A stretch of 63,250 bases of DNA, the filler included, from Ionaspis alba (taxonomy: Eukaryota), in NCBI GenBank assembly GCA_964255285.1. It is 2 parts of 2 records of this genome, joined end to end, with 100 filler letters (N's around TTAATTAATTAA, not from the genome) between each part and the next. Parts side by side here need not be neighbours in the genome. Positions count along the whole stretch, not along the records: positions 1 to 31,596 come from CAXUUL010000108.1; 1 more part is not named here. The stretch is one strand, 5' to 3'. Numbering within the stretch: position 1 is the first letter of the stretch; the number at the start of each line of letters is the position of its first letter. The position numbers were made by a program, and so were the translations under genes. Under the pieces are notes generated by a model, which saw only the letters and a program-made list of their open reading frames with translations, was not told the DNA's origin and did not search any database. Shown here in pieces: positions 3,331 through 61,669 of the stretch.

Positions 3331-6300
3331 TCAGGACTCCTCCATCAAAGCCTCTCCTTCTCCAACCTCTCTCCACTCCCGACTCCGCCCAGTCAATCTC
3401 TTGACGCCTCCTATTCTCGCAGCCCAAAGACTCTCGGATGGAGTTCGGAAAGTGTACCCCCGTTGACTGCTGATGACGCCGATGGCCTGCAAAACCGCCT
3501 TTCGACTATCACGTCCGAAGACAGCGGGATGCAGGATCCACTCCAGGCCAGCCTCGAGCTCGGTGTCCAGTGCGGAAAGGACGGTGGCATCTATACCGGG
3601 AGCAGCGGACAGCGAGGAGGTGTCGGAATGCTGGGGAGAAGGATGACGCTCCGGCGAGCCATTCGCGGACCGTGGCGAGTTGTTGGCGGATCTGGGCGAA
3701 TTGGCGGAATTTATGGTCGGCGTGCTGATGTTGTTGAGGGTGGTCGAGTCGCTGGTCGATTGCTTGGTAGTCATGGGCACCGGAGGAAGACCACCCTTCG
3801 CGAGCCCTTTGAGAATGGTACGGGTCTCGTTGAGTAGATGATGAGCACGTTCGTGCTGGCCTCGAGAGACAAGGGTAAGGGCACGAGTGAGCATGTCGGA
3901 TGTCAGGAGCTCCATGCGGCGTTGTACGATGGAGGGATGGGGCGGTATCGGAGGAGTGCTTGGGCGCACGGCCTTGGCAGATTTGGAGGAGGCGGGAAGC
4001 ATGGTAATGGCGAGGAGGGATGGGCGGGGAAGCTGGGTAATGGTGCCATCACGAAGAATATCTCCATAGGTCAAATCTGCTTGGATCAGCGGTACCTCTT
4101 CGACGCTTAGAGTTCTCTGTTCATCCTGGTCGAAAGGACCGCTGAGCGCCTCGAGGCCCGATACGATCGATTCCCAATGATCCTGCGGCAAGTGTTCTTC
4201 GGATGAGTTGTCTGGAGCGATGACCAATTGGACCAAGATATCTATCATGCAAATTAGATATTGCATCAGACGAAACCGTGGTTCACCTTACCTCTTTTGT
4301 CGCCGAACCTCAGATCGCCCAATGCAGCCTCTGCATCTCGTCCACCCGTGCGCTTCGTGATCTGCAAGGCGCCAGATATTTTGGCGAACTTTGCAGGCGA
4401 GCCTTCCGGCAGACGAAGCTTGAGTTTGGCGTTCTGATGTGAAGTGGTCTGCATCGAACCCAGACATCCTGCCACGCACTCCCGGAGCATCATCCAGTCT
4501 TTGACGTAGGTGTAGGACGCTTTAGTGCGAGTGGACAACTCAATCATTGTGTCAGGTTTGTGCGTCAAACCTAATCCGAAAGAGTGAATCGCGATCCTGG
4601 TAATTGCCGAGATCAGTATGCGTCAAACAACCGCCATGGATAATTATCCTAGCTGCAGGTTGTAGATACCCGAGCGAATCATTGGGAACGAGGCAGGGGA
4701 AAAGGAAAGGGAACACAAACTTTGCAGCTTCAGCTCTTGACACGACAAAATCGACACTTTCACCATCGGAAGTTGAAGAGTCGCTAATCAAAAGTATGGT
4801 GGCGATTGGATTGTTCGACTTGCGCTGCATGAGAAGATCCATCGCAACGTTAGCGCCCTCGACAACGTCGGCTCGAAGACTTCGTCCGCCAACAGGACGG
4901 ATAGAGGTCAAGATCTTCGACCATCCGGGCCACGTCTTGGTGGTCATGCCCACGAGAGGCACTCCGCCTCCACTTGATCCAAAAGTGACCAGGCCCATTC
5001 TGTCGCGCTCTCCGAGGCTCTGCACGAGGAATCTCAATGCATCGCGCAGGAGAGTGATCTTGAGCCCTTGCATCGACGAGGATACGGGGATCACCACAAC
5101 CAGATCGAGTGGTACATGAACCGATGCCGGGAGGCGTGGGTCGACCATGCCTCTAGCCGAGTTGGTGTATTCGGTTGGTGCGGTATTGTTGGATCTTCCG
5201 GCTCCGTATGACGAGGAGTTGACAGAGGATACCCTCTTCGTTTTCATCGTCTTGTAGTCATCATCGTCAGTGCCTGAATTGGACTGCTCGTACTCATTGC
5301 GCATTGGCGTGTCCGCGGCCGGTGGTGCATTCAATTCGATTAGCGCACGTTTCCACTGTTCAAGCTGACTGTGACTCTGGAATTGAAGGTGAAACTGTGC
5401 CAATTCTTGAACCGCCAGGCTCAAGGTAAGTACAGGCTCCGCTGTGATGGCAATATGTCAGATGTGCTTCTGAAACAGATGGGACGCGAGGTACTATCAC
5501 ATACCTGGATTTGATTCGACCTTTCGGAGGTGCTTCTTGATGAGTATAGAGCCCTTGAGGGTGCATCTCGTGAGCTTGCGCTTGGAGTTGCCCTCGGCAT
5601 ACTGCGGTACTGCACCCTTCTTCTCCTTGATGCATATAAGCATTTCGGCGAAAAGAAAGCATTCGAGCTCTTGCCACGACCGTCGATCCTTGCCCACCCG
5701 AATGGTGCCGTGAAGACGCAATTTCCCGAACCTGCAGCTGTTAACATCCCGACACGTTGCGGGTGTGCGCTTGAAACATACCTGGGGAAATCCAAGCCGT
5801 GCCAATTATCGACGCGCAGCCGAAGGTCTTCGGTTATTTGCTCCAGAACTTCTGGGGATTCCTCTGGCCAATTTGCCTGGTTGGTTTGGACGGGAGATCG
5901 CGGCCGAACGACTTCTTTCTCCTGGTGATGATGGATAGCAGGAAGAGGAGGAGCGCTGCGTAGGTCTTCTGGGTCTGGTCTCCATTTTCCTTCCGGAACT
6001 TCGATGGTGATCAGGCACGTCAAGGTCTGCGATTGTCTGGAGCGGATGAGAGTAGGATATTCGCTTCTCACAGTGACGTGGGGAGGTGGAATCGGGTTCC
6101 TAGCCATGCTGACCCTAGGGCTGCTAAGGTCTGTCTCCATCGATTGGACATCGTAGTCGTGCCGCCTTCCGTCATTGTAATCGCCTTGTGATGAACCCGC
6201 GCCTGTCCCCGCACTGACGGTTCTTGCATGCTGCAGTGAATCGGGACCATATCTTTCGATTCGTTCCCGCTGGGTATCCTTGCTGTCACGTTGAGACTGC

Positions 6301-15000: not shown

Positions 15001-16375
15001 AAAATCAAACCCCCCCCCGGGGAGACTCTGTACCGAATTCGGCTTGACCATTCTCGGCGCGTGACTTTCCTCTATCACCTCCCTTGTTCTTGATGCTATC
15101 CTCATCATAAACACACCGCCCCAATATCCATGATACTGGCCGTCCTACTATTCTCTTCACATTGTTGGGCCACGCACTATGGGTTTCAGCTGGTACTATG
15201 GAAGTTGGAATTAGCAAAGGTGCCTCTACGCGTTACCTGTGGGCAGTGCGACCAAGGCCCAGGTCTGGCGACCCTCTTAGGCTCTCCTTAATAGCATGAC
15301 GATATTACTATTTCTAAATTTTTCATACATAGGTTAAATAGTGATGGTGCTGTAGCCATTTGAAGTTCGTGTATAGGGGGGCAAAAAGTGGGAATTCGGA
15401 ATCGAGTGGTGATCTACGTTACACATTTTTGTGCGCCCACTCGATTCCAGCGCCAATCTTCAACTTCACATTCCTTTTCAACCATCACACCAAACCTTGC
15501 AGCCTCAGGCTTAAATTGATCCCCAGAATCTGCGCTTCACAGCGTTGGTAAGTTCGAGGTCGTATACCTCGTCGTCGCTAACGAATCTTGCACTGAAGCA
15601 GCAATCAGATAGCACGTAGACCGTCACTTAGAGCAACTTGTTCCAACTGAGTCCTCTCAGATGGAGAAACAATGCTCAAATCACACCAAATCTAGGCGGG
15701 TTTGACTTCAAGGCTGGGGACTCGGCTGAAACAGCCCCGCACAGAAAAGTGCGTGACCCGGGTGGTCCCTAATCTGGGTCGTTCGGGTCCGATGCAGAAT
15801 GGGCGATAGCCTGGTCGCACCAACGAGTGGCAGGAGGTGAGAGTGCCGAATCGCTTGGTTGTCAACGCAGCAGGTGTGACGCGCAATATAGCTCCCACTC
15901 ATTCTCCCACAACCCAGACGAAGCACTGGTAGCAATAGTACATATCGGACTGTAGGTGGCCCAGACAGTCTCCCATGTCCCACCGAACACAGGATTGAAT
16001 GTGCTGGTTACGCTGCGATTCGGGCAGACTGTAACGACTTAGCAAAAATCCCCAGTGACCTTTCTGTGCAAAATAGAGACACTGACCTGCCCAAGAGTAT
16101 CTGACAGCACTTTACGGGTCAAGCTCCATCGACCGATCGCGACCTTGGAAGGTAAAGGACAGTGAATTCTTAAAATACGAAGGAGATCATCGCGCTCGAC
16201 TGTCCTTGGTCGGAAGAGCTCTTGCCCATCCAGAGCCCCGCCTCACACTGCAAGATTGAGAGAAAGAGCCGTTTGTGCCTCTGCTGAATTCGATCTTATC
16301 GCAATCCGAGTTGCTCCATCACTGAGTCTGATCTTCCTCCAACATCGCACGTACCTGCCGATTTTGTGACTCGTA

Positions 16376-19300
16376 ATGTTTCGACGCGTCCTCGGTGGGA
16401 AGAAAAAGGACAAAGAAGGAGCAAAGGTGTCCGAGACGGGTACGACAGGCACAATCTCTGATAAAGAGGGATTGACTATCGTCCCAGTGAGACGCACAGG
16501 GCCATCTCAGCCGCCTATGATCCATCAGCTGATGCTGTGCAGAAGGACACCCTTGGCCTACACGTCCTCTCCGAGCCAGAGAATGGAGATGCCAAAGTTG
16601 AGTAGGTGCTGTCTGAAAGTCGCATTTGTAAATCACTGAGTGTTTCCAGCATCGTGGCGGTGCATGGCCTCGGCGGAAATTCCTATTCTACATGGACGCA
16701 TAGCAATGGTGTCCTATGGCTAAGGGACCTCTTACCTACAGAGATCAAAGATGCGCGCATCATGACCTACGGATATGATGTTGGGATGATTACCAAAGCT
16801 CGAACCGAGAGAAGTTTCACATTCGCCGAGGGGCTACTCACAGAACTGAGAGACTTGAGACCCGGTGGAGCGGTATGACCACAGGGCCTCTTCCCCAGCA
16901 GAGGGCTGACATTCCACAGAGAACGCGGCCCTTGTTCTTCATCGCCCATAGTCTGGGAGGAATCGTTGTCAAAAAGGTCTTGGGGCTTGCCTGCTCCCTC
17001 GAGCTATTTTGGCTAACGCGTTTGGGGCCAGGTGCTTATCATCGCCAAATCCAGGCCAACTCAGTATGGCGACATCATTGACAGTACGAGGCACCTGATG
17101 TTCTTTGGAACTCCACACCAGGGTACCACGTCGATGGCAGGATTCCTCCGCCGCCTAGGTGCTTCGCTGTCTTCGGAAGGCAGCGTTCTCCGAGAACTGG
17201 AGCTTTGGAGCCCTCAGGTTCACGAGACAAACAGCGCTTTCCTAACCGAAATTGCACCCATGTTCACCATCACCACTTTTTGGGAGAGAGAGAAGATTGC
17301 CGGTGTTCAGGTGACTTACCAGACAAAGCTTGCCGGACTCTGAAGACTAATCTCCATGATAGGTCGTTGATGAGGGCTCTGCGCGTCTCCATCAAACACA
17401 CGAGGATGTTATCGGCCTAGACGCAGACCACCGGACTATGTGTAATTTCAAAGACGCTGATGATAACAAATTCATCAAGACTGTTCGACGACTTCAAGCC
17501 GAGATCAGCAACTTGAACGAGCAGCCACTCAACGTGAACGACGAGCGAATCAAAGATCTTCTCAAGTATGTGGCTCCAACTCACGATCCGTCTCAACCAC
17601 GAGGTTCACATGGGGACAATGTCCAGGAACAATGAGCTCGCACCTTACCTGAAGTCACTAAACGCTGCGCAACTCCAGCTGGAGGTAGAACGGTGGATCA
17701 CCCAAGTTCGTCAATCCCTGGTTATCTCGGCCGTTGTCTGATTTTGTTTTCTAGGAATACAGCGCTGGGGTAGGAAAGCCTTAGCTGAAGATGTTTATAA
17801 TCTCTATTACTGACACTGCTTTAAGCTGAAGCACGAATTCCGAGACTGGATTGACCCTCCGATCTTCGACGACAACGATTTCCTAAAACATCACAGCAAG
17901 CTGTCAAAACGACATGAGAAGTCTGCTCAGTGGATCTTTGAGCAAAATACGTTCAAGTCCTGGGAATCGGGCGAATCGAGGCTGCTTTGGGTCTGTGGTC
18001 GACCTGGTTGCGGAAAGTCGGTCCTTGCCTCCAACGTTGTACAACATTTCCGCCACCGATCGTTATCTCAAACCGCGCCTGCTCCCACGGTCGTGTATGC
18101 ATTCAGTGATAAGCAAGATGAGGGTAAGAAATTCTCTGCATCGTTGTTGCGAACGCTCCTCTGGCAGATAGTGTCGAGCGATAAGCTTTCTATCTCCCAG
18201 CAGCTCGAGATCATCAATGATTGCCGCCGCACTTCCAGGGGGCAGGGAGCCCAGCCGAACGCTTCCACCGATCACAGGTTTGCGTACATGTCGAGTCTAC
18301 TCGAGAAGTACATTCAGATGCTACCTGTCGTCATTATTCTTGACGGCCTCGACGAGTGCTACGATCCGGACTTGCTTGCTTCCCTGGTGGTCCAGCCGGG
18401 GTCTTTTCAGTCTGACGGTGTCAGAATCTGGGTGTCCAGCCAGAAGATTCATACTGTTTCTCGCCACCTCGATCATTGCCCAGCCAAGATCGATATGGAA
18501 GACGAAAACATCCGAAGCTTGACCGACGGTGACATCAGACAATATGTAAGAACCGAACTCTCCGCAAGTGAGAGCCCTGTCATATCACAGAATATCGACG
18601 AGATGACTGAAGCTATCGCCTCAAAAGCCAACGGGATGTTCCTTTGGGCTGCGATCTCCGTTCCCGAAGTACAAGCGAGAGCCGAAGCTGCGTCGAACGA
18701 TCTTGAGCAACTCCGGGAATCCATTGGCGATTTACCTGAGAACATGGAAGAAACATTTGTGTACCTGCTGAACCGTATCTTGAGACCGGTGTCAAATCTT
18801 GGAGCACGTGCTAATGAACAGCGTCGAAATAAACTGGTCCAGATCCTGAGATGGTCCATCCATGCAGTCAGGCCCCTCACAGTAAGCGAATTGAATGAGG
18901 CAACGACTATTGTTCCTTATGAGCACGAACAGTCTCAGAAGGTCGAATCCACTCAATCATCCGACATTTCTGGCCTGCTGAGGTCGTTATATCCTTTGAT
19001 CTACATCTCGGAAGAAACGGTGCACCTCATGCACGCCACGTTCCGGAGCTTTGTTCTTCCAGCAGGTAACACTGAGCCTGTGGCAGCCGTTGTGGAGATG
19101 TTAGGTTCTCAGAGCTTCCAGTCTGAGCTTGCAGCGCAATGCGTCGTATACTTGAGCAGGCCCTGCTTCAAGAACTTCATCTTACTGTCTTCGAATTCTG
19201 ATCTGACGAAGAAATTTGCACTTCTTCAGTATGCGACTGTGAATTGGATAACCCATGTCTTGAATGATCCAAATGCCAATACTGTATTGAAGAATCAGCT

Positions 19301-22300
19301 GCATGACTTCCTGTCTACGAATCAGGCTATAACATGGCTCGAACAATACATGACCTACAATATCGACGGTATCAAAACGTTACAGAGTCAGCTCTACCGC
19401 CACCAGGGCTATGTCGCAGACCCGAAATGGATTTTGAAGATCCTCATCGATAGCGTGGAGGAGAGAATGGAGCGCGATCCAGACTCAGTCAAGACAGACC
19501 AGATGACTACTGAACTCGGCACGCTCTACAGATATCATGGTATGGCAAAGGACGCAGCAACCATCTATGAAAAAGTCTACCGCAAGCAGAAGGCATTGAC
19601 AGCACCGAACTCTCACAAGCTTCGACATGCAATCAACAATCTTGCACTCGCGAAGAGTGACCTGAATCAATTGGACGAGGCGAAGCAGCTTTTTGAAGAG
19701 CTTCTCGATATCGTCAGAACGTCAGCTGATGGAGACACGGAGGATGCCATCGCTGCATTAAACAACCTTGCATCTGTTTCCTCTAGCCTTGGCCATTATC
19801 CAGAAGCCGTCGAACTCTCCGCCCAGCATTTGGCTCGAACCAGAGCATTCTACGGTGATCGTGATGTGAAAACCTGCCTGGCCTACAACAATTTTGGACA
19901 CGCCTGTTTATCTGTAGGGCGGGCAGGGGTGGCTAAAGAACATGTCCTCCGAGCCTTTCAGCTCTACACCGAGATACAGGGAAAGGATTCCCATGGCGCA
20001 CTCTTGGCATTAAATAACCTTGCTGCAGCTGAGAGCGCATTAGGCAATGACACTGAAGCGTTACGGCTCTCTGAATATCTCTGGACGACAAGGCAGAGTA
20101 TGCTTGGAGAGGATCACCCGGATACATTGCTCGCTTGCCAAAATTACTCTGTCTATCTTTTTCACCATGACCGCGTCAACGATGCCTTGCCATTACTCGA
20201 AAACCAGGTCCGCAAACAGCAGAAGCTTAGAGGACCAACCCACTCTAATACTTTGTCTGCTCAGGCGAATCTTGCAGAGGCATTGGAACAGCTCGGTAGG
20301 TATAGAGAGGCGTTGGAGCTTCAACGGCGTACCCTCGATGCCAAAAAGCGGATCCTTGGGATCTCTCATCCGGATACTCTGCAAAGCATGCTAAACTATG
20401 CCAACGCGCTGCGCAAGGATTACAAATTTCAGGACGCCAGATCACTACTAGTCGACTGTCTCAGCTTGCACTCTCAAACATTGGGACTATACCACGAGAG
20501 GACTATCATGGCGATGAGAAGCCTGTCTGGGTTCTGCGAAGAGCAAAATCGCTTCCATCTGGCTGAACATTTGGCAGTGCGCGCGCTCTATCTTACGAAA
20601 ATCACTCTTTCGGGAGACCACCAATCGACCTTACTAAGCGACATCTTCTGCGCAACAGCAATGAGGGCTCTTCATAAGTATGATGCAGCTGAAGTTGTTC
20701 TGAAACGCGTTTTACGATTGGCTCGAAGAGCATCGATCGAAGAGGCCACCATAGTCCTCGGCGCAAGGGCAGCTCTGTCAAGCACGCATAGATATCAAGG
20801 AGACTACGACGCGGCACTGGATATGGCAGATCAGGTGGTCGAGCGATGTGAAACCCGAGGTACGGGAGGCAAAGACATGAGACAGTGGCTACTGGCTGGC
20901 TGGGAGCAGCGGGGTCTTGCTTTGGGGAAACTGGAAAGACATGAAGAAGCGCTTAACATGCTAAAGAAGGTGCAAGAGGAGAGAGTCAAGGATTTCGGCC
21001 CTGAAAGCAATGCAAGGCTACCCTCCCAGTGCAATCTTGCCCTCTGCCGCTTGAATGTTGGAGATGTCGAGGCTGCCCAAGATTTGATACAGCCTGTGCT
21101 CAAGACTTGGCTGGAGCTGCTAGGTAAAGCGCATTCCCTTACTGGCATGGCGATGGCCATTCAGGCAAAATGCCATTGCAGGCTTGGGAAATATGCAGAA
21201 GCCAAATCTCTTCAGCTGGAAGCAATAGCGGTACGCCAGACTGCACTGGGTTCGCGGCATTTATTGACTTTGCGCACGAGACATGACTATGCAACGATTC
21301 TGTTTGAATCCGGAGATTATGAAGCAGCTGAGCAGGCAATGACGGACGTGCTCCGGGACGAAAGGCGGTACTTACGCAAGGGTCATCCTCACACTCTTGA
21401 AAGTGCAATGTACCTCGATGAGATCCACACCAAGCTGGGCAAAGATCTTGTCTCGGTGCCTACTATCGCACCTGAAGAGATCAACGACGAGAACGAGGAA
21501 TCGGCGAAATTACAAGCACTACACAAGACTCTGGAAGAAGCTGAAGCCGTCCTTGGGAGTAATGATCCCGAAATATTGATACTTCAACGAGAGCTTGCTC
21601 TTGCTCATGAAGCAGCCCTCCGCAACAATGATGCGATCCGCCTTCTCCAAGAAGTGCTTGAGCGACAGACTGAGGTGCATTCTGCCACGCATCCTGAGAC
21701 AATTACCACTCTCGTAGAAGTCATAAGGCTGACTGGGGGCAAAGACAAAACCAAGAAAGCACAGCTCTCACAAGCTCTCATGGAAATGATCCGGACCAGG
21801 TCGACGAAAGACATGAGCCTGTTTCGCAAGATTCTGGAATATAATCCCGACATGACTGCTACAGACCCTGAAACAGGTTATACAGCACTCGCTCTTGCGG
21901 TACACAGGAACGAATTGGACCTAGTGCGCTACCTGCTGGCATCTGGTGTCGATGCTAACACCGTCGAGTCCGACGGCAGAACCTGTCTACACATCTCCGT
22001 TGCCGCGCAGCTCTCGGAGATGGTGGAGCTTTTACTCAAACACAAAGCGAGCCCGAATGTGTTGGGAACCAAGGAAAAGCACAGTCCACTATATCTGGCT
22101 TCTGCCAAGGGGTACATCGACATCGCACGCATTTTGCTTGAAGGGTCAGCAAGTCCGAATTTTCCTGAGGATGTGGCGCCCCTTCTTGCGGCGGCAGGGT
22201 ACAATCACTCTAATCTTGTGGAGTTACTCCTCCACCATGGCGCTAACATAGAAGTCCTATCATCGGAGGGGATGACCCCATTCCTCAACAGTATCTTCCA

Positions 22301-23756
22301 TGGGCACTTACCGATGGTCGAGCTTCTTCACAAACGGGGCGCCAATGCCAGCGCCGCGTCAAGCTCTGGCAGCAGAGCACTGCATCTGGCGTGCTGGAAA
22401 GGCTCGAAACCCATCGTGGCATTCCTGATCGGCATCGGGCAAGACGTGAATGAATCTGCAACGACCGGGGGCTTCACGCCCTTGCACATTGCAGCCGAAC
22501 AAGGCTTCTGGGAGATCATGGAAGTCCTCGTACAGGCAGGCGCGTCGCTTGATTCACGCAGCACCAACGAGAATGCGTGGACGCCGCTGGTAAGTGCAGC
22601 TTGGGCCGGGCGAGCAGAGGTCGCCGGAAATATCTTGAAAATCCCTGGACAGACACCGAACACGCACTTCGGCTTGTTGCGTGCAACTCCGCTTCATTAT
22701 GCTGCTTCTGCCGGCCACGTCGAAGTTGTCGGCAAGCTACTAACGGCTGGAGCCGACATGGATGCGCTCACCATACACGGAGCAACTGCGCTGATCGAGG
22801 CTGTCCGGGAAGGCCATCTTGCAGCGGTGGAGACACTTTTAGCAGCAGGCGCAAACGTGGACATCGAATCATCGGGGAAAACAGCGTTAACGATAAGCTT
22901 GCTCAACGGCAAGGTCGAGATCGTGGAGGCTCTCATCAAACACCCGACCACGAACGTCGACGCACGCATCTTCGGGAGCGTAACGACCATCTACCTCGCA
23001 ATCTATCTCCTCCCAAGCTCAATTTTGAACCTCCTGCTCGAAAGAGGCGCAAACCCCAATCTCCCCAGCACCGAATGCCAACAATACCCACTACACCTCG
23101 CCGTCGAGCTCCGGGAACACGCCTACATCCAAACTCTCCTGGACCACGGCGCAGACCAGACCCTGCGGGACATCTTCGGCCGCACAGCCGTCGACACAGT
23201 CGAAGCAGACGACAATGTCTTTGAGATGCTCAGCACCGATTTCCGAACCTCCCTTTCCGACCACATTGCGAAGGCCGAAAGCACCATCGCGAACCATGCC
23301 CTAGAGATCTCCGTGCATCTCGAGTCGGGGAAGCCCAAAAGCGACCAATTCGTCCGAGATAAGCTGGAGATCGTGGCGCAGGCTTTCCATATCCTGAACG
23401 CCACGGACGGCGAGAGGATCGCGCTGGAGCAGTGCATTGTCTGGAAGGAGACCAACGACAAGCGGGTGATAGAACACACACTCAATTGCATTGGCTGCCG
23501 GGGTCTGAACAGCATCGTCGGTACGATGTATATCTGCACGAAATGCCCGTCTACGGCGCTGTGCGCGGCGTGCTACGAGGGTCATTGGAGCGGCGAGAAG
23601 CCGTGCAAGGCGTGTAGGCACGGTGCGGAGGTGTTTTTCGCTATACCGGGGGAGGGATGGGTGGAATTGGATGCGGAGGGCTTTGTATGTAAAGATAGCG
23701 AGACTGGCAGGGGATGCAGGTTCGGTGAGTGGTTGACGGAGAAGTCTTTCATATAG
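16376..23756 (+). CDS. Fungal NLR (STAND): SesB-like alpha/beta-hydrolase + NACHT + TPR repeats + ankyrin repeats + ZZ-type zinc finger; 9 exons predicted
   Basis: Hydrolase motifs: DIVAVHGLGG, WLRDLLP, RIMTYGYD, FIAHSLGG (16944-16961), FFGTPHQG, LDADHRTMC. Walker A GRPGCGKS (17997-18020), Walker B IILDGLDEC (18333-18359), ANGMFLWA. HPDTL-type TPRs ~19500-21730, ankyrins ~21860-23200, CxxC...CxxC...CxxCY ZZ motif ~23486-23640. Eight GT-AG introns keep frame into the last exon (17826-23756). Confidence 0.9.
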
Positions 23757-23939
23757 ATATATAGTAGGGCGGTTCTGTTGTCGTTTCGGGCAGAACAGTT
23801 GGTTCATGCTTGAGTTTAACAACAGCTCAAGTTTTTATGGATATGTAGCACACTTCGCACGTGCGATTGCACCCATTCCTCCCCACTAACGGCCAGGACG
23901 CCAAGCCGAGCAGCCCCATAAGGCGAGTAACTCAATCGC

Positions 23940-28116: not shown

Positions 28117-30381
28117 TCAATCCGGCATCATGAGTCCTTCCTCTCTCCCACTTCCCCCACCATAAGCATCTACCATATCCACATTCTCCTCACTAACGCC
28201 TCTTGTCCTCCTTAAATCCCCTTCCATCTCCGCCTCCTCTTCGCCCTCCTCCTCCTTCAGCCAACTCCTCCCCTCCCCCTCCTCCCCATCCTCAGCGGGA
28301 GGGGCAAAGTTCCAGATCTCCATAACCGTCCTACCCTGCCTATTTGCCAGTACTACACTCTTCTCCTCCTCGAATGCGACTCTCCAGACCTGCTCCGCAG
28401 GCTGACTCAGCTCTCTTATCAATCCTCCGGTTTTCAGATCCCAGATCTTGACCCGCCCATCGCTGCCGCCGCTTACGATTCGCGAGTCGTCGAACTGCAA
28501 TGAGGTGACACTATTGTCGTGGGCTGCGAGCCGGTGGATAGGGGTGTATGAAGTTAGCGACCAGACACGAACGGAGCCGTCGGAGCCACCGGTGACTAGA
28601 GTAGGGCCACGCATTTGCAACTGGCCTACAAGGGAGGTATGACCTTGAAGAATGGCTTGGCATGTTCTGTGGAGATATTTTAGCATATGTTCAAGGCTTC
28701 ATATTGGGAACAAAGGGGAGCTACTCACCCGTCGTAAGGATTCCAGATCCTGACGCTCGTGTCCAGACTACCCGTGGCGATGCGTACGCCGTCAAATACA
28801 ATGGCGTAGATCTGGCTGAAGTGGCCCTGCAATGTTCTGAGGCACTGGCCGGTCGAGATACTCCATATCTTAGCGGTTGTGTCGTAGCTGCCGGAGACGA
28901 CCAGATCACCATGGATCTCTAGGCAGCGAACGCTGGCTTGGTGCCCCATCAGGACTGCTTTGCAGGTTCCGGATGGTATATCCCAAACACGGAGAGTGGT
29001 ATCTCGAGAGCCGGATATCGCGGTGTGGGCATCGGCCATCTTAAGGCAGCGGACGGTAGAAGTGTGACCTCGCAGGGTGTGGACGCTTGCACTGTTCAAT
29101 TTATCAGCCCATCAGTCTTTTCGTCTCATTTCGTGAGCAGCTGAATAGCTCCATTCGTACCCTGTCGCCATATTCCAAACTCTCACATCTCGATCGCAGC
29201 CACCACTAACAAGTACATCACCCCATGGAACCGTCGCCCAGACGCCCATAACGTGCCCTTGTAGTGTTCTCTGATGGTTTCCTTGCCGATCGAAAACATG
29301 GATTTTCGCATTGTCCAGCGCAACCACAATATATTTCTTTGTCAAATGTAGACTCGTTACTACTCCTGGATCAGGAGTGACATGCCGTACGGTCATCTGC
29401 CCGCCTTTCCTCCATGCCGATTCCACCAGATATTTATGCTTGAAATGCGATCTATGCGTAGATTTTGGCCTGGTGCGCTTGAGGTTTCGAACGTGCTCTG
29501 CAGCCTTGCTTAGGAAAAAGACCTCATTCGGGTTCGAGCCGGGGATTGTAGGGGACGGTATACGTCTCGCGAGTGTAGGTTCGACGGTCTGGTCTGGGGA
29601 TGTAGCTCGAGGTAATTGGTCGAGGAAGTACTGGCTAGCAGCAGAAAAGGGGCTGGTAGTTGACATATTCGAGTCGCTCGACATCCTCCGGTATGCGTGC
29701 TTCTCACATAATGCCTTCCATGCTTGGTCATCGCTCAATATTTCCCGCCATCGTCGCGAAACTCGGGAGGCTCGGACAAATGTCCTTGGATCATCGACGA
29801 ATTCAAGTATCTATGAAAACATTAGCGCTCAGGTTGCTAGCCAAGCGTCAAGTTCTGCATACCCTAAAGCAAAGCTCATTGGGCAACGTCTGAAACGGAT
29901 CCTTCTTCAGCCGCGGGCTGACAAGCTGGTGTACATAATTCAACAGATGCGTATCAAAGGTGTCCACTATCGACGCCAGCCATGATTCTTTCCCTCCGAT
30001 ACTCAATCTACTGAACGCAAAGCTTGCATCCCGCAATACAGAGTCTTCATGGTCCTCAGCAGGATTATTCCATGCCGTTGATCTTTGATGAGGGGTAGGA
30101 CTGGGTGCCGGCGTTGGTGGAGATGCAGGTGCGGAGGGAAGGAGAGGGTTCGGAAGAGTCTGCGGCATTGAAGGCGGCACGCCGGTATTGGGAGTTAACG
30201 GAGGTTTAGGGTGGTGATGATGACGGATTGATTCTTTCCTTCGGGACGTCTGTCTGACTGATACGGGGACTGGCGGCAGTCGACCTGGAAGAAGCTCTTC
30301 ATCGTCAGAATCGCCAACCGGTTGCAGCAACCCTCTACCACCCCTCGACTCCATCTGATGCCCAAGCACAGGGGCAACCAT
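28117..30381 (-). CDS. F-box/WD40-repeat protein (Cdc4/SEL-10/FBXW7-like SCF substrate adaptor), spliced
   Basis: F-box: DPFQTLPNELCFR...RASRVSRRWR. WD40 repeats: LQGHVMGVW...SGGCDRDVRVWN, LRGHTSTVRCL...SGSRDTTLRVWD, SGSYDTTAKIWS, TGSLDTSVRIWN, TGGSDGSVRVWS, SGGSDGRVKIWD. Start (MVAPV at 30381) is uncertain. Confidence 0.88.
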
Positions 30382-32178: not shown

Positions 32179-34587
32179 ATGGCCCTGAGCAACACGTCAG
32201 ACAACTCCGTGATGGGGGATCCTGGGAACGATAAAGTAGCTGCTGACGGCACCGGTATGTTGCTTCACGAAAATTCCATCCGACAGCCCGCTAAGGCAAT
32301 CAGGTGTTATACAGCTCGACCCATGGCTGTCGCCATTCAAGGATTCCCTCCGCAGTCGATTCGCCCATGCGCAGAAGTGGATCAGGACAATCAATGACAC
32401 AGAAGGTGGCCTGGAAAAATTCAGTCGAGGCTTCGAAAGATACGGGTTCATTGTGCACGACAACGGAGATATCACTTACCGGGAATGGGCTCCCAATGCA
32501 TTGAGAGCGTACCTTATTGGTGACTTCAGTATGTGCCCTCGAGGAATCTTCGCCGGAGTCTACCGAGTTCTAATGCTTCCGACAGATAGCTGGAATCGAG
32601 ATGCTACACCGATGACGAGAAACGATTTTGGGGTCTGGGAGGTCACCCTTCCTGCAAAGGACGGACAATTTGCTATTCCACATGGGACTAAAGTCAAGGT
32701 AAAGCTCAGCAGAACAGACTCGGACGAATAGACGAGACTGACCTGTGTAGATGTCCATGGTCATTCCCCACTCAGGAGAGCGCATCGAACGTATTCCCGC
32801 ATGGATCACAAGAGTTACGCAGGATATGGCAGTCTCACCAGTTTATGACGGGATCTTCTGGAATCCAACAAAGTCAGAGAAATATGTGTTTAAGAACAAG
32901 AAACCAGCCAAACCAGCGAGCGTTCGTATCTACGAAGCGCACGTGGGTATCTCGTCTCCGGAACTCCGCATCACCACATACAAAGAGTTCACTAAAAACG
33001 TCCTACCACGAATTCACCATCTGGGATACAATGTGATTCAATTGATGGCGATTATGGAGCATGCGTACTACGCAAGCTTTGGATACCAGGTCAACAGTTT
33101 CTTCGCGGCGAGCAGTCGATTTGGGACCCCAGAAGACCTCAAAGAACTGATTGACACAGCTCACGGGATGGGGATTACTGTACTGCTCGATGTTGTGCAC
33201 AGTCATGCCTCGAAGAACATTGCCGACGGGTTGAACGAGTTTGATGGCACTGATCATCTCTATTTCCATTCTGGGGCAAAAGGCCGACACGAGCTGTGGG
33301 ATAGCCGGTTGTTCAATTATGGACACCATGAAGTCTTGCGCTTTTTGCTATCGAACCTGCGGTTTTGGATGGACGAATACCAATTTGACGGCTTCCGATT
33401 CGATGGTGTCACGAGTATGCTCTACACTCATCATGGCATTGGAACGTAAGTATTACCCGTGAGAAAGCTGGTCTATGACTCACTCCGCTAGGGGCTTCTC
33501 TGGAGGATACCACGAGTACTTTGGTCCCAACGTTGACGAGGATGGTGTTGTCTACCTGATGCTCGCCAACGAGATGTTGCATCAGCTCTATCCAGACTGT
33601 ATCACGATTGCGGAAGACGTCTCGGGAATGCCTGCCTTGTGTTTACCGCTATCTCTAGGAGGAATTGGATTCGACTACCGTTTGGCTATGGCTATCCCTG
33701 ACATGTATATCAAGTGGTTGAAGGAGAAGGAAGATGGTGAATGGGATATGGGAGCGTTGGCTTTCACTCTCACCAACCGGCGGCATGGTGAGAAGACCAT
33801 TGCTTATGCAGAGAGTCATGACCAAGCGTGAGTCGGGTGCAAAACATTACAATTCGAGGCTGACAAATGACACTAGACTGGTTGGCGACAAATCACTTCT
33901 CATGTGGCTATGCGATAAGGAGCTTTATACCCACATGTCTACCTTGACAGAATTCACGCCGATTATCGAAAGGGGGCTCAGCTTGCACAAGATGATACGG
34001 TTGATCACTCACGGACTGGGTGGGGAGGGTTACCTCAATTTCGAAGGCAATGAATTCGGGCATCCAGAGTGGCTTGATTTCCCAAGGGCTGGAAACGACA
34101 ACAGCTTCTGGTATGCTCGTCGACAGTTCAACCTGACAGATGATAAGCTGCTACGCTACAAATTTCTCAATGAATTTGACAGTAAGATGCAATGGACAGA
34201 GGAGAAATACGGCTGGCTTCACTCGCCTCAAGCTTATATAAGTCTAAAGAATGAGCAGGACAAGGTGATTGTCTTTGAGAGGGCTGGTTTGTTATGGATC
34301 TTCAATTTCAACCCAACACAGAGCTTTGCGGATTACCGCGTTGGTGTGGAACAGAGTGGGACTTACCAAATCGTATTGGATACAGACGATACGGAATTTG
34401 GTGGCTTCGGACGCAATGTCAAGGGGACGAGGTTTTTCACAACACCGTTCGAGTGGAATGGTAGGAAGAATTTCATACAGGTGTACATTCCGAAACGAAC
34501 CGCTATTGTAAGTATTGTCACGGTCCTCTGCATTACAATTCATGTTAATAAGGATGGTAGGTCCTCGCTCTCGAATCTACTCTATGA
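32179..34587 (+). CDS. GLC3: 1,4-alpha-glucan branching enzyme (GH13), spliced
   Basis: [92 protein letters not shown]. Last exon VLALESTL* ends at 34587. Confidence 0.96.
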
Positions 34588-35191
34588 GGTTTGGATTTCC
34601 AGCAGTCTTACGTATTGTCGACCAGATCTGAGTATTAGATAAGACTTGGATTGCATTTGTTGTGACTATGTGAGGGATTTTGCTCTATTTGGTTGTGGCA
34701 ATAAGACGCGCTGACCACTGGTTACTCGTGGTCCACTTGGGAGGTTGTTGTATGATTAGAAATACGTGATCATCTGCCTGTACTGGTAAAGTACAAAATG
34801 TCTAACCGAAGGATCGTATATGGCTCTGACTCTGACTCAATACCAAAATCTCGTTTTGTTTAGGTGATTTATGCCCTCTTGCGTATGAGTAAGCTAAGCT
34901 GGGCTGTGTCTTTCGAGACGGGCCGTTTCGACCTGCCACGCCATGACGACTAGCGGCAACCTCCGAACCACGGACAGGATGACCCCACCATGCCTTCCTC
35001 AACATTCGCCCATACATAAAAAACCTCCGCCCCTCACATCATTACTCCATAACAATCATCCTACACGATCAAAATACCTTCTACGAGGAAAGAAACAACC
35101 TAAAAAGAAACTCAGATAGACAGGTATGCTACACAAAGCCCAAATGCTTTCATTCAAGCTCAAATACTGATTATCCCGCAAAGTCAACAAT

Positions 35192-36543
<1,352 letters not shown>

Positions 36544-47047: not shown

Positions 47048-50000
47048 ATGGCGGATCCCACCGGTGGTTTGGAGCAGAGTGCGTCGTCCTACAAATCTGA
47101 AATGAAGGATCTCAATACAGCCATGGGGTATACTGACTGTGAAGCCAAATTCTAGAGCACCCAAATCTTAACTTAAGTCCCGAAGAGCGACGACTTTTTG
47201 GCCAAGTCTTCTCTGCCGCAGACACAGACAACCTAGGCGTGGTCACTGGAGATGTTGCTCTCAGATTCTTCCCGGAGAGAACAAAGCTTGCCTCAGAGAC
47301 CTTGGGTGAAGTGAGTGCTCGATGTTAAGAATTGATGGTCCAGCTTATCCTGATGCTTACCAACGTATCTGTGCATAGATATGGCAGATCGCAGATACGG
47401 AAGACAAGGGATTCCTCACACCGGCTGGATTTGGCATAATTTTGCGATTGATTGGATACGCCCAGGCGGGTCGGCAGGTCTCAGCAGAGCTTGCCCTGAA
47501 GCGTGCGTTGTCCTTGTTGACTAAGCAGCACCGTCCATAGTTGCTTATCAGATTTCTGGAATAGCTGGTGGCCCACTACCACGCTTTGACGGCATAAATG
47601 CACCTCCCGCTGGATCTCAGAACGCCCCACCAGCACCGCTACAGCCTCAGATGAGTGGAGGACCGATTCGAGTTCCACCACTCCCGGCAGAAAAAGCGAA
47701 CCAGTATGCGGCTCTTTTCGAAGAATCAGGTGCTCAGAATGGACTGCTAGCCGGTATAGTCACCCATATGCACAACCGTCAAGTGTAGAAGCTGATACCG
47801 TACGCTGTAGGTAGCACCGCTAAACAAATATTTGACCGCGCTCAGCTACCTAATGATGTCCTTGTACGAATATGGAATCTGGCTGATACTGAGTTCAGAG
47901 GAGCACTGAGCGTTACCGAGTTTATCATTGCCATGCACCTTCTGGCTTCCTACAGAACCGGAGTGTTACGAGCCTTACCACAGAACTTACCGGCAGGATT
48001 GTATGAAGCAGCTGCTAGGCGCGGTGCTCCTCCTCGACAAGCTTCTGGCTCGCGGCCTACTTCAGATGTGCCTTCAGTACCCGCTATTCCACGTCAGTTC
48101 AGCGGAGTTGGGCCTCAACGGACTTCTAGTCCATTGGCGCGACCTCCCTACGCGGCGGGTCCGATGGCAGCTCCACCCTCTGGGCTTCAATCACAGTCTA
48201 GTGGAGACTGGGCAATAAGCCAGCAAGAGAAGACACAATTTGACAACCTCTTCGCGAAAGTGGACGTGGATAATAGAGGATTCGTCACTGGAGATCAGGC
48301 TGTTGGGTTCTTTAGTAATTCGAAACTCCCAGAAGAAGACCTGGCCCAGATCTGGGATTTGGCCGATATCAATTCGGAAGGCCAACTCAACCGTGATGAG
48401 TTTGCGGTGGCAATGCATTTGATTAGACAACAACTCGGTCAGAAGAACCTCACTAGGAAGACTCCTTTGCCACAATCGTTACCGGCGAATCTTGTGCCAC
48501 CCAGCATGCGTCGACAGCCCACTGCACCTCCGCAGTCGACAGCCCCTACCTTCGAAAACGCCGCAAATATAGCTAAACCAAAATCTGCGGCGGATGACCT
48601 CTTCGGTCTCGATGCATTTTCTGCCCCAGCCCCACAAGTCGCTCAATCTACTGGAGGCTCCACGACGTACACACCGACCTCTCCTCAACCAACAGGTTCC
48701 TCACCGCAAACCCAGTCAGCTCAACAGTCATCTGTCTTCAAACCGTTCGTGCCGTCATCATCATTTGGTCAAAACATGATGACACCGCAAGGTACAGGCT
48801 CCAGTAGAGCTCTTCAAAACCAACAAGCGCACCATCCTAATGCAGATGACCTTCTCGGTGATAACGATCCGGAAGTCAGCAAAAGGCTTACGCAAGAGAC
48901 GACTGATCTGGCCAATCTGTCGAATCAAGTAGGCACGTTGACAACACAGATGCAACAAGTCAAATCGAAGCGCGCATCAACGCAGGAGGACTTGTCACAA
49001 GTGAACAAGCAGAAGCGTGACTTCGAGGCTCGGTTGTCGCAACTACGTTCGGCGTACGAACAGGAAGCTAGGGAAGTGAAGGCATTGGAGGAACGACTTG
49101 TAGGCTCCAGAAACGAGACAAGGAAGTTGCAGCAAGATCTGGCTATGGTACAACACACCCATCAGAATCTCCAGGCGGAGCATCAGCAAGTGGCCGTGGC
49201 TCTAGAAGCGGATCAGAAGGAGATTGCAAGCCTGAAAGAAAAAATGCGACAAGTCAACAACGAGATCGGCCAGTTGAAGCCACAACTAGAGAAAACGCGG
49301 TCCGATGCTCGTCAACAGAAAGGACTGGTAGTCATTAATAAGAAGCAACTCAGCACTATCGAAGCCGAACGCGAGAAGGCCAAGAACGACCTCGCTGGTG
49401 CTACCCGAGAGATGGAAGAAGCAACGAGAGAATTGGAGGAAACCCACCGCAGTCTCCAAGCTGCTCCTCGAGCTCAGGTGCCAGCTCCTATGGCGACTCC
49501 AACTCCCTCTACAACTAGTCAAAGCATGAATCCATTCTTCAGACGTGGAACAACTTCCTCAGATAGAGGCTTGTCGCAGCCAGTCGTGTCTCCTCCGACT
49601 GCTGCGTCGCCGAATCTCAATGCATTCGATAGCTTCTTCGGACCTCCAATTTTCACACCTTCTCCATTTACTGCTCAAGAGTCGTCTCATGCTCCTCAAC
49701 CTACCTCAAGAACGGATAGTCCGGAGCAACCTCGACAGGTGTCTGGACTACCTGAGCCATCTACTAGATCGATTGATTCACCGGAACAGGTCAGCGTTCA
49801 GACACCAGTAACATCGTCTCCCCCCTCCGTACATGATGGACTACCATCGTCATCAGCATTACCACCACCTCCTCCTCAATCAAGACAAATTACTTCCAGC
49901 TTTCTGCCGCTCAAAGACAGCATACCAAGATCAGGCTCTCCTAACTCTTCCGTTGGTGTTGCGCCGCCTGCGAGTCGTTTTGGAGATCTTTCCGGGATTG

Positions 50001-51752
50001 ACACTCCTACGAATGAGCGGACGTCTTCTGGAACCTTCCCCCAGTCTCAAGATACGGGTCCATCAGAGAAAGCAGATACGAGCCAGGCGAAGAGCTCTGC
50101 AACACCAGGAGTATCCTCGACGCAGGACAGTATTCCGTTATCCGAAACCCTCAGTTCGAACAAGCCACCTGAAATTGGAACTTCAGCAGCGAATGAAAGT
50201 TTCAGAGAAATTGGACAACCCAGTGCTCCACCAGATATCCCAGGATCTTTTCCTGGTGACTCAACCCCTTTCCACACTCCTTTGAACACTTCGGGTATTT
50301 TAGAAGCGCCACCTCCAAATCAGAGCCAGTCTCCCATAGAGAGTCTTGCGATTCATTCGGACGAACCTTTTGGCGCCAAATCAGATTCTCGAGATCCCGC
50401 CTCAGCGAAGGAAGACTTTGATGCTGCATTCGAGGGCTTTGGAAACAAGGGAAAGGACAAGGGAAAGGAGCCGGAGCCTAGAGGTCAAGGATTCCCAGCT
50501 GATGCATTAGATCAAGCAGCTCCACGTGTTGCGGGTGGCGAATTCCCACCCATTCAGGAATTTGGTGCAGATGACGACAGTGATAGCAGTAGTGACCGTG
50601 GGTTCCAAGACAATTTCACAGCTGCTTCTCCGCCACGACATCAGCGGGACATCTCCCATGAATCAGGAATGACCAACCAATCCCTGTATGGAGCCAGCGA
50701 TACATCAGCCGCGGGTGTGACCGGCCTACCACGGCCCGGCTTCGATCGAGAAATTTCGAATTCGAGCCAACTTCCTACACCCAATGCTCAAGCTTCGCCA
50801 CCAACGTATGACCAGACCGTATCACCCAACGGGGTAACGAAAGGACCCAGAGACTCAAATCAATTCCCTGCCGAATATGGCGGACTCCTTCCCTCTAGAG
50901 AACCCGTCACGTCTCCTCCAGAAAGTGCCATTCGATCTCCCTCCGACGGCGACAGGAACTCGCCCTTCTTCGGCAGCCCCGTCGCAAGAGACCGCGCCGT
51001 CTCCGGTAGTTCCATATCTTCTTCACGCATGCCCATGCCCTTCGGCGCGACCGCCGCTCCCTACGCCTACAACAATGTCCCCATTTCTTCCGAGCCCTCG
51101 TCCTCACACAATCAACCTCCTATTCCTCCCAAAAATGCCTTCGACGACTTCGAGAACGAATTCGGCGACCTTTCTGAGGCTCAAGCCGCCGACGACAAAG
51201 TTGAAGACGAATTTGCGGCCTCGCAACAGGCGGACTTCGATGAGTTCAACCCCACTTTCGACTCCCCTCCTCCCTCGAAAGCTACGGCCAGCTCGGTGAA
51301 TCAGGATGCCAATGCCTTCCACGACTTTGAGTCCAGCATATCCAGCTCGGCACAGCAATCTACCAGTCGGCAGACTGCGCCGACAGCGGCGGTGAACCAT
51401 GACTGGGATGCCATGTTCGCTGGTCTCGATGGCGGATCGTCCCAGACCAATGGGGATGGAGCTAGGGACCCCGCGATCCCGCCGAAAGAGGCTATTGGGA
51501 GTAACTTCGAGGTTGCGGCGAAGGATAGCGAGGTGGCTGCGAAACCAATGCTCGGTAGGACTTTGACGACGGAGCATGATGATCCGATACTGAAGAGGTT
51601 AACTGGGATGGGGTATCCCCGAGATGCAAGTCTGGATGCATTGGAGAAGTTTGACTATAATCTTGATAAGGCATGTGGTTCTTGATCTGTAGAATTAGTG
51701 GATGTGCTGACTTCTTGGTTAGGCGGCAGATTATTTGACGTCAAAGGGGTAA
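47048..51752 (+). CDS. EDE1: Ede1/Eps15-like endocytic adaptor (3 EH domains, coiled coil, UBA), spliced
   Basis: EH domains (IWQIAD, IWNLAD, IWDLAD...EFAVAMHL), long coiled coil, NPF motif, C-terminal UBA LTGMGYPRDASLDALEKFDYNLDK-AADYL via a GC-AG intron at 51671-51722. Confidence 0.93.
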
Positions 51753-55400: not shown

Positions 55401-55635
55401 TCCATAGCGGCGGCGTTGGGTCTCGCAAGCCTAACTGGTTCCGGGTCGCCCCATTGAGACCAACCATACCTTGCGTAGGTTTTCGAGAAAGACGTGCTTC
55501 TTTTCGACAGTGCAATAGAACTGATCTAATGTTTCGATGCAACAGGACTGGATTTCGGTGTAGTCGTAAATATCGATAGAAGGTGATGTTACCAGTAAAT
55601 TTTCGGTTGAAGTCTCGTTCGTTCTTGGTTGACAT
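52481..55635 (-). CDS. SUZ12: SUZ12-like Polycomb PRC2 subunit (C2H2 zinc finger + VEFS box) with spliced C-terminal PHD finger
   Basis: CPLC...FHFHLIHSH zinc finger. VEFS-like FYRSVSKRPLLEGEEISESDDE...WLLQKH...FTDMSLTEKEFICRYDRH. Intron 53482-53541 joins a PHD and the low-complexity ORF 52609-53313. The end is 52481 if a last intron is spliced, otherwise 52609. Confidence 0.8.
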
Positions 55636-56451
55636 ATCAATACAAAGGCATCGATCGAGCCTTACACGGTATGCTTGGCCGAAGGTCGATATGATTTTCC
55701 TCCAAACGAACAACCATAGCTAAAGGCTCCTTTTGAGCTGGGGTCCGAACCTGGGACGCACAGCTGATATATCTTTTGCTGATCGTTAGACAAGTGAAGC
55801 CGATATGAAGCTTTATGTAACATACTCAGTGACGTCTGCCTGCCATCACCCTACAGAAGGAAAGCACGGCGAAAGCAAGCAAAACAAAGGTTATGAATTA
55901 TGTTCAAATGTGTAGCTCTCTTAGCATGAGGTGACACAACTTGAGATTTGAAAATTAAAGTATAGAACGCGTATTTTGATCAGTTTTCTTATTCTCTAAA
56001 ACAGGACTTGCGAAGAAGCTGAGTGGGAGGCGGATGGGAGTATTAATCACTCAAGACCTTCGACCAACTAACACCCATAGCAAGTCAGGGTCGCGTTTCG
56101 CTGCACGTTTTTCTGTGAAAGTAGATGAGCAAGAAAACGCGTAATGCGACTCGGAGGTGGGTCATCCGAAGGTGCGTGGAGGTGAGCTTCGTCGAGTCTC
56201 GTAGTGAGCTCCATGTACTCTTACCCAAAGCAACAGGGGTTATGGGCGCGGGTGGTTGGATGAGGAAGCGCTAGAACTTTCGGCCTCTCTCTCGGCCCGA
56301 AGGTGGATAGCCTTATTTGAAAGCCTAGGAAGTGGCGTATTTGACTCTTCTCGAAGTTATTAACCAAATGACCACCGCGAGCATGTCTGCTACGCTCAAC
56401 TCTAGCGCAGCGAGCTGTTCTGTCCGGCTCATATGACTGCGCACCAACAAT

Positions 56452-61239: not shown

Positions 61240-61669
61240 AATGCTATGAAGCTTAATGGGGAATATATATGACTGCTCTATTGTCCTTATAGAGGAGGTT
61301 TCGGGAAGCTTTGTAGGGCTGAAATGTAAGGCTGATGATCCCACGCTAGTATTGTTGGTTATCCACAGCACGATGGTTGCTTGCGACTTAATTCTGTATC
61401 TGATGAGAAGATATTGGGAATGTTCGTGATTTACTTAATCCGGTCAGAGATGATTTATTGTTGAGCACCTTAATGACTGCTCAAAGGGATCGTACAAAAA
61501 GTTGGCTGCAGAACCTCAACCTGGCTATCTAGATGTCAATGGCTAGGTACTCTCTTTTTCCAGTGTTCTTAGACAGTTTTGGCATCTAAGAAGATCAACG
61601 CAATCGGTATCAATCATCTCAGAGCCCTGAAGTCCTCTTTTCTGTGTCTTTCCTACCTCGATTTGACGA

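Follow-up and report, generated by a model that had tools for sequence, protein, structure and literature searches.

We analysed a stretch of DNA of 63,250 nucleotides (nt) from Ionaspis alba (assembly GCA_964255285.1), hereafter the window, which consists of two joined parts that need not be neighbours in the genome; positions 1-31,596 come from CAXUUL010000108.1. On its plus strand, at 16376-23756, lies a gene of the NOD-like receptor (NLR) type, with a predicted protein of 2,311 amino acids (aa) in the spliced model. This is probably an intact fungal gene of the STAND (signal transduction ATPases with numerous domains) or NLR type, which combines a SesB-like hydrolase, a NACHT module, an array of tetratricopeptide repeats (TPR), an ankyrin array, a helical spacer and a ZZ-type zinc finger, belongs to a small and old family and would operate as a molecular switch. 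An earlier reading made from the DNA alone, hereafter the sequence-only reading, had proposed an intact NLR with five modules in the order hydrolase, NACHT, TPR, ankyrin and ZZ, and the spliced model, the motifs and the Pfam matches bear this out.

The frame scan revealed that 17814-23756 reads through 1,980 codons in a single frame uninterrupted by stops, and that short coding pieces in changing frames precede it across 16376-17825. All introns must therefore lie within 16376-17825, with none in the NACHT, TPR, ankyrin or ZZ parts; confined in this way to the first 1.45 kb of the gene, they are followed by one unbroken exon of 5.9 kb. The splice model, assembled by hand and script, contains nine exons and eight GT-AG introns of 47-70 nt, and reads through in a single frame from its start codon (ATG, 16376) to its stop codon (TAG, 23754-23756) (Table 1). 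The sequence-only reading was essentially right in calling eight frame-preserving introns, and its length of ~2,290 aa is replaced by that of our model. The large frame has no Met before its P-loop (the first Met is residue 159 of the open reading frame, ORF, and Walker A is at residue 62), and an intact NACHT therefore requires the upstream exons. A single gene, with the hydrolase exons joined in frame to the NACHT exon, is what the DNA predicts.

The weakest element of the gene model is the 15-nt exon 8. Without this micro-exon the model has seven introns and encodes 2,306 aa, and the frame is still kept; the Tyr it encodes aligns with a Tyr conserved in three relatives that are contiguous at that site. 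Two further splice choices were rejected, a donor at 16440, where the intron is either too short or out of phase and the GT is changed in a relative (the contig of sequencing run X3, described below), and a 38-nt intron at 17566-17603, which is out of frame. Brute-force enumeration returned 16,149 splice paths, a figure that is not informative by itself. We also observed an imperfect 21-nt duplication (2.1 copies, 79% matches) at 17509-17553, in the part of exon 6 that encodes the linker after the hydrolase domain, which is the gene's only tandem repeat.

Within the large exon the Pfam matches identify the NACHT module and both repeat arrays. NPHP3_N scored 105 bits, well above its cut-off of 24.8, with the classic NACHT model slightly below cut-off (25.8 bits against 26.7) and a weak match to GPIID_WHD (18.8 bits). 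The Walker A and Walker B motifs, GRPGCGKS and ILDGLDEC, are present, and the NACHT with intact Walker motifs that had been claimed for this gene is upheld. The claim of two different repeat classes likewise has the support of hidden Markov models (HMMs), as TPR_12 (E 2.8e-66, nine stretches), TPR_10 (E 8.1e-49) and the Ank families, led by Ank_2 (E 1.8e-76, nine stretches), are all far above the Pfam cut-offs, and HPDTL-type motifs are present in the TPR array. A crude self-profile gave 12 ankyrin units and nine clear TPR units of 42 aa, both of which are lower bounds. Tandem Repeats Finder detected no DNA tandem repeat in either the TPR or the ankyrin array, and the repeats are therefore old and diverged.

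The hydrolase was judged indirectly, through its relatives. The spliced amino-terminus matches two of the 120 proteins compared by BLASTP (P0012, E 3.4e-22, and P0073, E 4.5e-20), and also P0263 (6e-16) and P0218 (1e-8); DUF676 (PF05057, cut-off 20.3 bits) is above cut-off in P0073 (28.8 bits) and P0263 (26.7 bits). Aligned with these relatives are HGLGG, AHSLGG, FFGTPHxG, the Asp of VVDEGSA and the His of DADH. At the nucleophile elbow AHSLGG aligns with [AV]AHS[LM]GG, the Asp is kept in four of five sequences and the His in all five. The alignments point to an alpha/beta-hydrolase of the SesB-like or DUF676 type, in which the catalytic motifs named by the sequence-only reading, an AHSLGG nucleophile and a DADH His, are intact. 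The sesB and DUF676 annotations overlap in rows of Table S3 of a survey of Sordariales NLRs (PMC12258605).

To characterise the carboxy-terminal cysteine cluster we aligned the tail of the window protein with the tails of five relatives (alignment A1). Seven of the eight ligand positions are invariant in the six sequences, with the second Cys kept in five. The A1 profile matches solved ZZ domains with E values from 1.2e-5 to 1e-3 (dystrobrevin 1.2e-5, HERC2 1.4e-4, p62 2.4e-4), and the nine PDB rows with E below 0.001 are chains of dystrobrevin, HERC2, sequestosome-1/p62 and ZSWIM2. An AlphaFold model of the tail, built from this shallow six-row alignment, has a mean pLDDT (predicted local distance difference test) of 72.4, with the spacer helices at tail residues 29-87 reaching 80-88 as a block. 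When this model was compared with the PDB using Foldseek the first 12 rows were all ZZ domains, at template modelling (TM) scores of 0.55-0.69 on the target and all with E above 0.1, the best being those of p62 and HERC2. We accept the cluster as a ZZ-type finger.

The finger has the same spacing of eight zinc ligands as the ZZ domains of dystrobrevin, HERC2, p62/SQSTM1, KCMF1 and p300, and a similar predicted fold (root-mean-square deviation 2.6-3.3 Å over 39-63 columns, at the TM scores given above). In contrast to the His/His of these ZZ domains, the last ligand pair in Ionaspis alba is C-x-H. In p62 and HERC2 acidic residues of the ZZ domain hold the amino-terminus of a peptide. It is possible that the window finger reads a peptide terminus in the same way; against this, the acidic pocket residues are not kept in the window copy, which has I and S-T-A at these positions, whereas the relatives P0123 (D-F-D) and P0128 (E-V-E) retain them.

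The sequence-only reading had named a misassembly across the TPR-ankyrin join as a possible refutation, and a fusion at ~21750-21860 as something to test for. Neither a misassembly nor a fusion particular to this locus is borne out. The ENA protein P0001 (1,941 aa) is collinear end to end, 56% identical over 1,930 columns with 15 gaps, running through NACHT, TPR, ankyrin and ZZ; by region the identity is 62% in the nucleotide-binding and oligomerisation domain (NOD), 53% in the TPR array, 61% in the ankyrin array and 49% in the ZZ finger. The proposed fusion stretch is the linker between the arrays, the least conserved segment against this ortholog (13 of 35 residues, 37%), and the NACHT-TPR-ankyrin order is found in nine proteins of one clade, described below. 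At the DNA level the stretch 16000-23876 aligns collinearly with a 32.5-kb contig of run X3, at ~94% identity (482 differences, four gaps), and fragments of run X6 are 90-95% alike to the window. On these alignments and the tree described below, the two arrays were brought together neither by misassembly nor by a recent fusion.

In these DNA comparisons, all indels listed in coding sequence keep the reading frame. Nine indel rows were among the differences listed. Those not divisible by three fall at 16050 (upstream of the ATG), 16500 (in intron 1, a 1-nt deletion in X3), and 17794 and 17801 (intron 8); the coding ones compensate, a +1 at 19779 being offset by a -1 at 19784 or 19786, and those at 22066 and 22069 summing to -3. 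All five X3 substitutions shown within 16396-16456 are on third positions of the exon-1 frame, and one of them removes the GT of the rejected 16440 donor. At 19779-19786 the window differs from both X3 and X6 by the +1/-1 pair, 5-7 bases apart, a compensated frame change of two codons within the TPR array. Similarity to the X3 contig ends at 23876, 120 nt past the stop codon, where the contig continues with unlike sequence, and the downstream neighbourhood therefore differs in that relative.

We next consider how widespread this arrangement is. An exhaustive HMMER search with the non-repeat NACHT region returned 18,507 proteins at E<=0.001, of which 24 were at E<=1e-30, among 1.84 billion. The best 150 matches were classed locally (phmmer) with the TPR, ankyrin, tail and amino-terminal segments of the window protein. 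A collinear NOD-TPR-ankyrin order was found in seven of these 150 (P0121, P0123, P0125, P0126, P0128, P0133 and P0147), confirmed by Pfam in all seven, and a further search added P0273 to the set. A tree of the NACHT region was built from 105 rows, the window and 104 of 152 candidates; the 48 left out had less than 420 aa of NOD or less than 250 aa after it. Nine TPR-ankyrin rows group with two TPR-only rows, which are shorter (993 and 1,379 aa) and may be truncated, in an 11-row clade with a Shimodaira-Hasegawa-like approximate likelihood-ratio test (SH-aLRT) support of 95, which sits inside a 16-row clade (SH-aLRT 99) whose remaining five rows are NACHT-TPR only. Because the TPR-ankyrin rows form one supported clade nested among NACHT-TPR proteins, the ankyrin-ZZ tail was most likely added once, long ago, to a NACHT-TPR receptor. 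The pairing of TPRs with NB-ARC is a tendency and not a rule, and the window NACHT sits in a NACHT-TPR lineage.

Outside the clade P0100 (NACHT-TPR-ankyrin, Pfam-confirmed), P0109 and P0071 also combine the two repeat classes, and the combination has therefore arisen elsewhere too. P0145, classed as TPR-ankyrin by the local rule, shows overlapping weak matches and is probably misclassified. P0022 (Pseudogymnoascus sp., 2,015 aa) is an NB-ARC-TPR protein that continues into ankyrin repeats and then a C2 domain of GDE1-like type (C2_GDE1); rather than a true dual-array NLR, it may come from a gene model that has absorbed an adjacent GDE1-type gene.

An organism name was found for one of the ten proteins looked up, P0125 (RFU23777.1, hypothetical protein B7463_g12561, partial) from Scytalidium lignicola, and the next named relatives of the window gene are Leotiomycetes too. 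P0125 has NPHP3_N/NACHT, TPR and ankyrin matches in the same order and positions as the window protein, falls in the same clade of the NACHT tree and has ~31-33% identity to it across the NACHT region. The alignment shows no Cys cluster in the P0125 tail, and this partial record has no hydrolase domain. In P0123, P0125 and P0128 an in-frame Met lies ~90-125 residues before the P-loop, and the three are contiguous at the positions of the window's introns 7 and 8. Intron positions, and perhaps the amino-terminal domain, differ within the family.

Several observations weigh against an intact receptor of five modules. The predicted proteins of the relatives begin inside the large exon, and the five modules are seen in one protein only in the window model. 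The single hydrolase exons, scanned one by one, gave no relevant Pfam match, DUF676 included, and the longest of them returned only a chance-level match (E 0.16) among PDB sequences. The Pfam ZZ model (PF00569) scored 19.4 bits for the tail alone, under its cut-off of 21.4, and no Pfam ZZ row appeared in the seven relatives scanned, two of these by their best 25 families. The perfectly matching X1 contig is probably the source assembly and so not independent, and the X3 frame was judged from the 40 of 648 differences listed. Eight sequencing runs are listed, none recorded as RNA, and X1, X2, X3 and X6 are contigs without spliced joints.

These observations raise the question of whether the gene model is an artefact or the gene is dead, the hydrolase exons and the large frame being two genes, or the whole an unexpressed pseudogene. 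No RNA is among the listed runs and the micro-exon is unproven; if intron 7 were retained the hydrolase frame would stop at 17741, and a hydrolase-only product is therefore conceivable. The large frame, however, has no Met before the P-loop and runs for its 1,980 codons free of stops, the catalytic and Walker motifs are intact, the indels listed in relatives preserve the frame, and the five exon-1 substitutions shown in X3 fall on third positions. We consider such an artefact or a dead gene highly improbable.

The overall layout is a familiar one. In Dyrka et al. 2014 (PMC4986451), sesB-like is among the commonest amino-terminal domains of fungal NLRs and is described as a predicted lipase/esterase with a human relative, the phospholipid-remodelling enzyme SERAC1; all six combinations of NACHT or NB-ARC with WD, TPR or ankyrin repeats occur, and a Podospora sesB-like/NACHT/TPR gene is listed. 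The window protein shares with the sesB-like/NACHT NLRs of a single repeat class described there an amino-terminal sesB-like domain, a central NACHT and carboxy-terminal TPR-type repeats. Unlike them, it continues beyond its TPRs into ~13-14 ankyrin repeats and then a ZZ finger, and its repeats are diverged, whereas those of the Podospora loci are highly similar and length-polymorphic (PMC4986451).

In the Sordariales survey 'mixed' denotes several canonical carboxy-terminal domains, and the rows of its Table S9 sum to 16 mixed among 4,613 NLRs, in keeping with the suggestion that two canonical repeat classes are rare in one fungal NLR (PMC12258605). The same table holds one sesB-like/T-NACHT/mixed protein and no sesB-like/T-NACHT/TPR (PMC12258605). 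Zinc fingers occur in 57 of the surveyed NLRs, 17 of these being ZZ, and 16 treble-clef fingers adjoin canonical repeats; decoy or sensor roles are discussed for the carboxy-terminal fingers (PMC12258605). The window protein has in common with these mixed and ZZ-bearing NLRs several repeat types and a ZZ finger, but the consulted parts of the survey describe no such conserved clade, and the survey covers Sordariales while the nearest named relatives of our gene are Leotiomycetes. PF00569 is absent from the 12 supplement files of PMC12258605 searched. A full-text literature search found no description of a TPR-ankyrin-ZZ NLR family, the tables of PMC12258605 not being searchable for ZZ rows. 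The ingredients are known and tabulated, and the specific conserved arrangement of TPR, ankyrin and ZZ appears undescribed in the literature searched. Taken on its sequence, the gene is an uncommon composite form of a known receptor class, in a small conserved clade.

How might such a protein work? By analogy with STAND proteins, where the mechanism is established, and with fungal NLRs, where it is proposed, the carboxy-terminal solenoids and the ZZ finger would keep the NACHT ADP-bound and off, and would bind one or more ligands. Binding would allow nucleotide exchange and oligomerisation, which would gather the amino-terminal lipase/esterase-like domains and so switch on their action on membrane lipids, with cell death or a defence response as the result. 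The sequence analysis itself speaks to gene structure, domain identity and the age and conservation of the architecture. From the analogy we infer a ligand, oligomerisation, hydrolase activity and a cellular outcome, and the 'dual sensor' and 'lipase-like death effector' of the sequence-only reading stand as inferences of the same kind. The input itself would seem to be of a particular sort. Because the repeats are diverged, their number is fixed between orthologs and the neighbouring genes are ordinary housekeeping ones, the evidence suggests a conserved input and not a fast-evolving allorecognition specificity.

The same evidence would also fit a conserved STAND scaffold outside immunity, in which a regulatory ATPase switch has TPR, ankyrin and ZZ parts that bring together partners from the cell itself, as in proteostasis or signalling, and a hydrolase that serves lipid remodelling and not killing. 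The diverged repeats, with no DNA tandem repeat in the arrays, and a repeat number unchanged against the 56% ortholog (15 gaps in 1,930 columns) are consistent with this, as are the core-gene neighbours (GAPDH, an alpha-amylase family enzyme, a mitochondrial carrier, EMC7 and an EH-domain protein), with no other NLR among the larger frames. The solved ZZ domains nearest the tail belong to ubiquitin and autophagy factors, and the relation of sesB-like to SERAC1 would point to phospholipid remodelling (Dyrka et al., PMC4986451). The family is nonetheless sparse, with nine clade representatives, 24 proteins at E<=1e-30 among the 1.84 billion and one named member found; such patchy distribution is typical of NLRs and not of core genes, and the overall architecture is that described for fungal NLRs (PMC4986451, PMC12258605). 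We therefore regard a non-immune scaffold as unlikely, if worth serious consideration, and favour a receptor of the NLR type.

The sequence-only reading further suggested that the ankyrin-ZZ tail may serve as an integrated decoy or as a second input; on this view the tail, independently of the other sensor, would mimic a host target of foreign effectors. Both ZZ fingers and ankyrin repeats are protein-binding modules, and PMC12258605 raises integrated decoys and sensor roles for carboxy-terminal zinc fingers. The tail, however, is fixed across the clade and not sporadic, and its rate of change is close to that of the other regions (61% for ankyrin and 49% for ZZ against 62% for NOD and 53% for TPR), while the tree fits a single old acquisition. 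Weak searches turned up no relative of the tail, whether on its own or in a different protein context: among longer proteins a tail-only search gave 286 candidates and none at E<=0.001, missing the known ortholog as well, and an ESM Atlas search with the tail gave no usable match. The decoy idea finds no support here: neither of its defining features, homology to a separate host protein and variable presence among related NLRs, was seen in these data, and such a role for the tail is, in our view, improbable.

Within the NLR reading a bolder proposal can be made. The clade may be a conserved class of fungal NLR in its own right, in which two solenoid sensors in tandem precede a ZZ reader at the end of the protein and two inputs are integrated. 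The TPR array would be the ancestral module for ligand binding or autoinhibition, and the ankyrin-ZZ part, added later, would read a second protein signal, which might be a peptide terminus as with the ZZ domains of p62 or HERC2. We advance this tentatively and think it unlikely in this full form. If it were true, slow evolution and orthologs across species would make the clade a practical starting point for defining the ligand of a fungal NLR for the first time. To our knowledge ligands are known for hardly any fungal NLRs, and in most of those studied the repeats are hypervariable. The sensor region of this small family is long, composite (TPR, ankyrin and ZZ) and conserved between species, which makes it a candidate for finding a conserved binding partner, and the gene could reveal whether two repeat classes in one NLR work together. 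The gain is modest, since receptors of this kind are familiar, published tables of fungal NLRs already include mixed repeats and ZZ fingers, and the function is deduced by analogy.

Table 1. Predicted features of the NLR gene in the Ionaspis alba window (positions of the whole window).
Feature	Position	Strand	Remarks
Exon 1	16376-16486	+	37 codons from ATG 16376, the first ATG after a stop in frame
Intron 1	16487-16542	+	56 nt, GTGAGA...CAG, CTGAT branch-like site; joins frame 2 to frame 1
Exons 2-6	16543-16601, 16650-16872, 16920-16976, 17032-17310, 17363-17565	+	Encode the putative SesB-like/DUF676-type alpha/beta-hydrolase
Introns 2-5	16602-16649, 16873-16919, 16977-17031, 17311-17362	+	Spliced model
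Hydrolase motifs	AHSLGG 16944-16961; VVDEGSA from 17363; DADH 17420-17431; also HGLGG	+	Spliced model
Introns 6-8	17566-17626, 17685-17754, 17770-17825	+	Spliced model
Exon 7	17627-17684	+	Linker before NACHT (...YLKSLNAAQLQLE); collinear with contiguous sequence of P0128, P0123 and P0125
Exon 8, putative micro-exon	17755-17769	+	15 nt, EYSAG; GT-AG on both sides, in frame; uncertain
Exon 9	17826-23756	+	Last exon, 5.9 kb; TAG stop 23754-23756
NACHT NTPase with winged-helix/helical part	17922-19493	+	Pfam NPHP3_N, ORF residues 37-209
Walker A GRPGCGKS	17997-18020	+	Intact
Walker B ILDGLDEC	18336-18359	+	Intact
TPR array	19521-21713	+	TPR_10/TPR_12 type, 42-aa period, at least 9 clear units, room for ~17
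TPR-ankyrin linker	21744-21848	+	ORF residues 1311-1345; in frame, no stop
Ankyrin array	21849-23198	+	~13-14 repeats; Pfam Ank_2, Ank, Ank_4
Helical spacer	23199-23486	+	Between ankyrin array and ZZ; conserved in relatives
ZZ-type zinc finger	23487-23621	+	Predicted ligands C2223, C2226, C2239, C2242, C2248, C2251, C2265, H2267 (model numbering)

Elsewhere in the window no second NLR was seen among frames of at least 220 aa. The other frames encode ordinary proteins: a mitochondrial carrier (1501-2214), a VWA-domain protein (4555-5457), an alpha-amylase family enzyme (32751-34639), GAPDH (35555-36244), an EH-domain protein (47789-51682), a VEFS-box (polycomb-like) protein (53509-55719) and EMC7 (60769-61434). 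On the minus strand at 28120-29810 two adjacent frames contain WD40 repeats and an F-box-like domain (E 1.9e-8), which together look like an F-box/WD40 gene ~4.4 kb downstream of the NLR and on the opposite strand.

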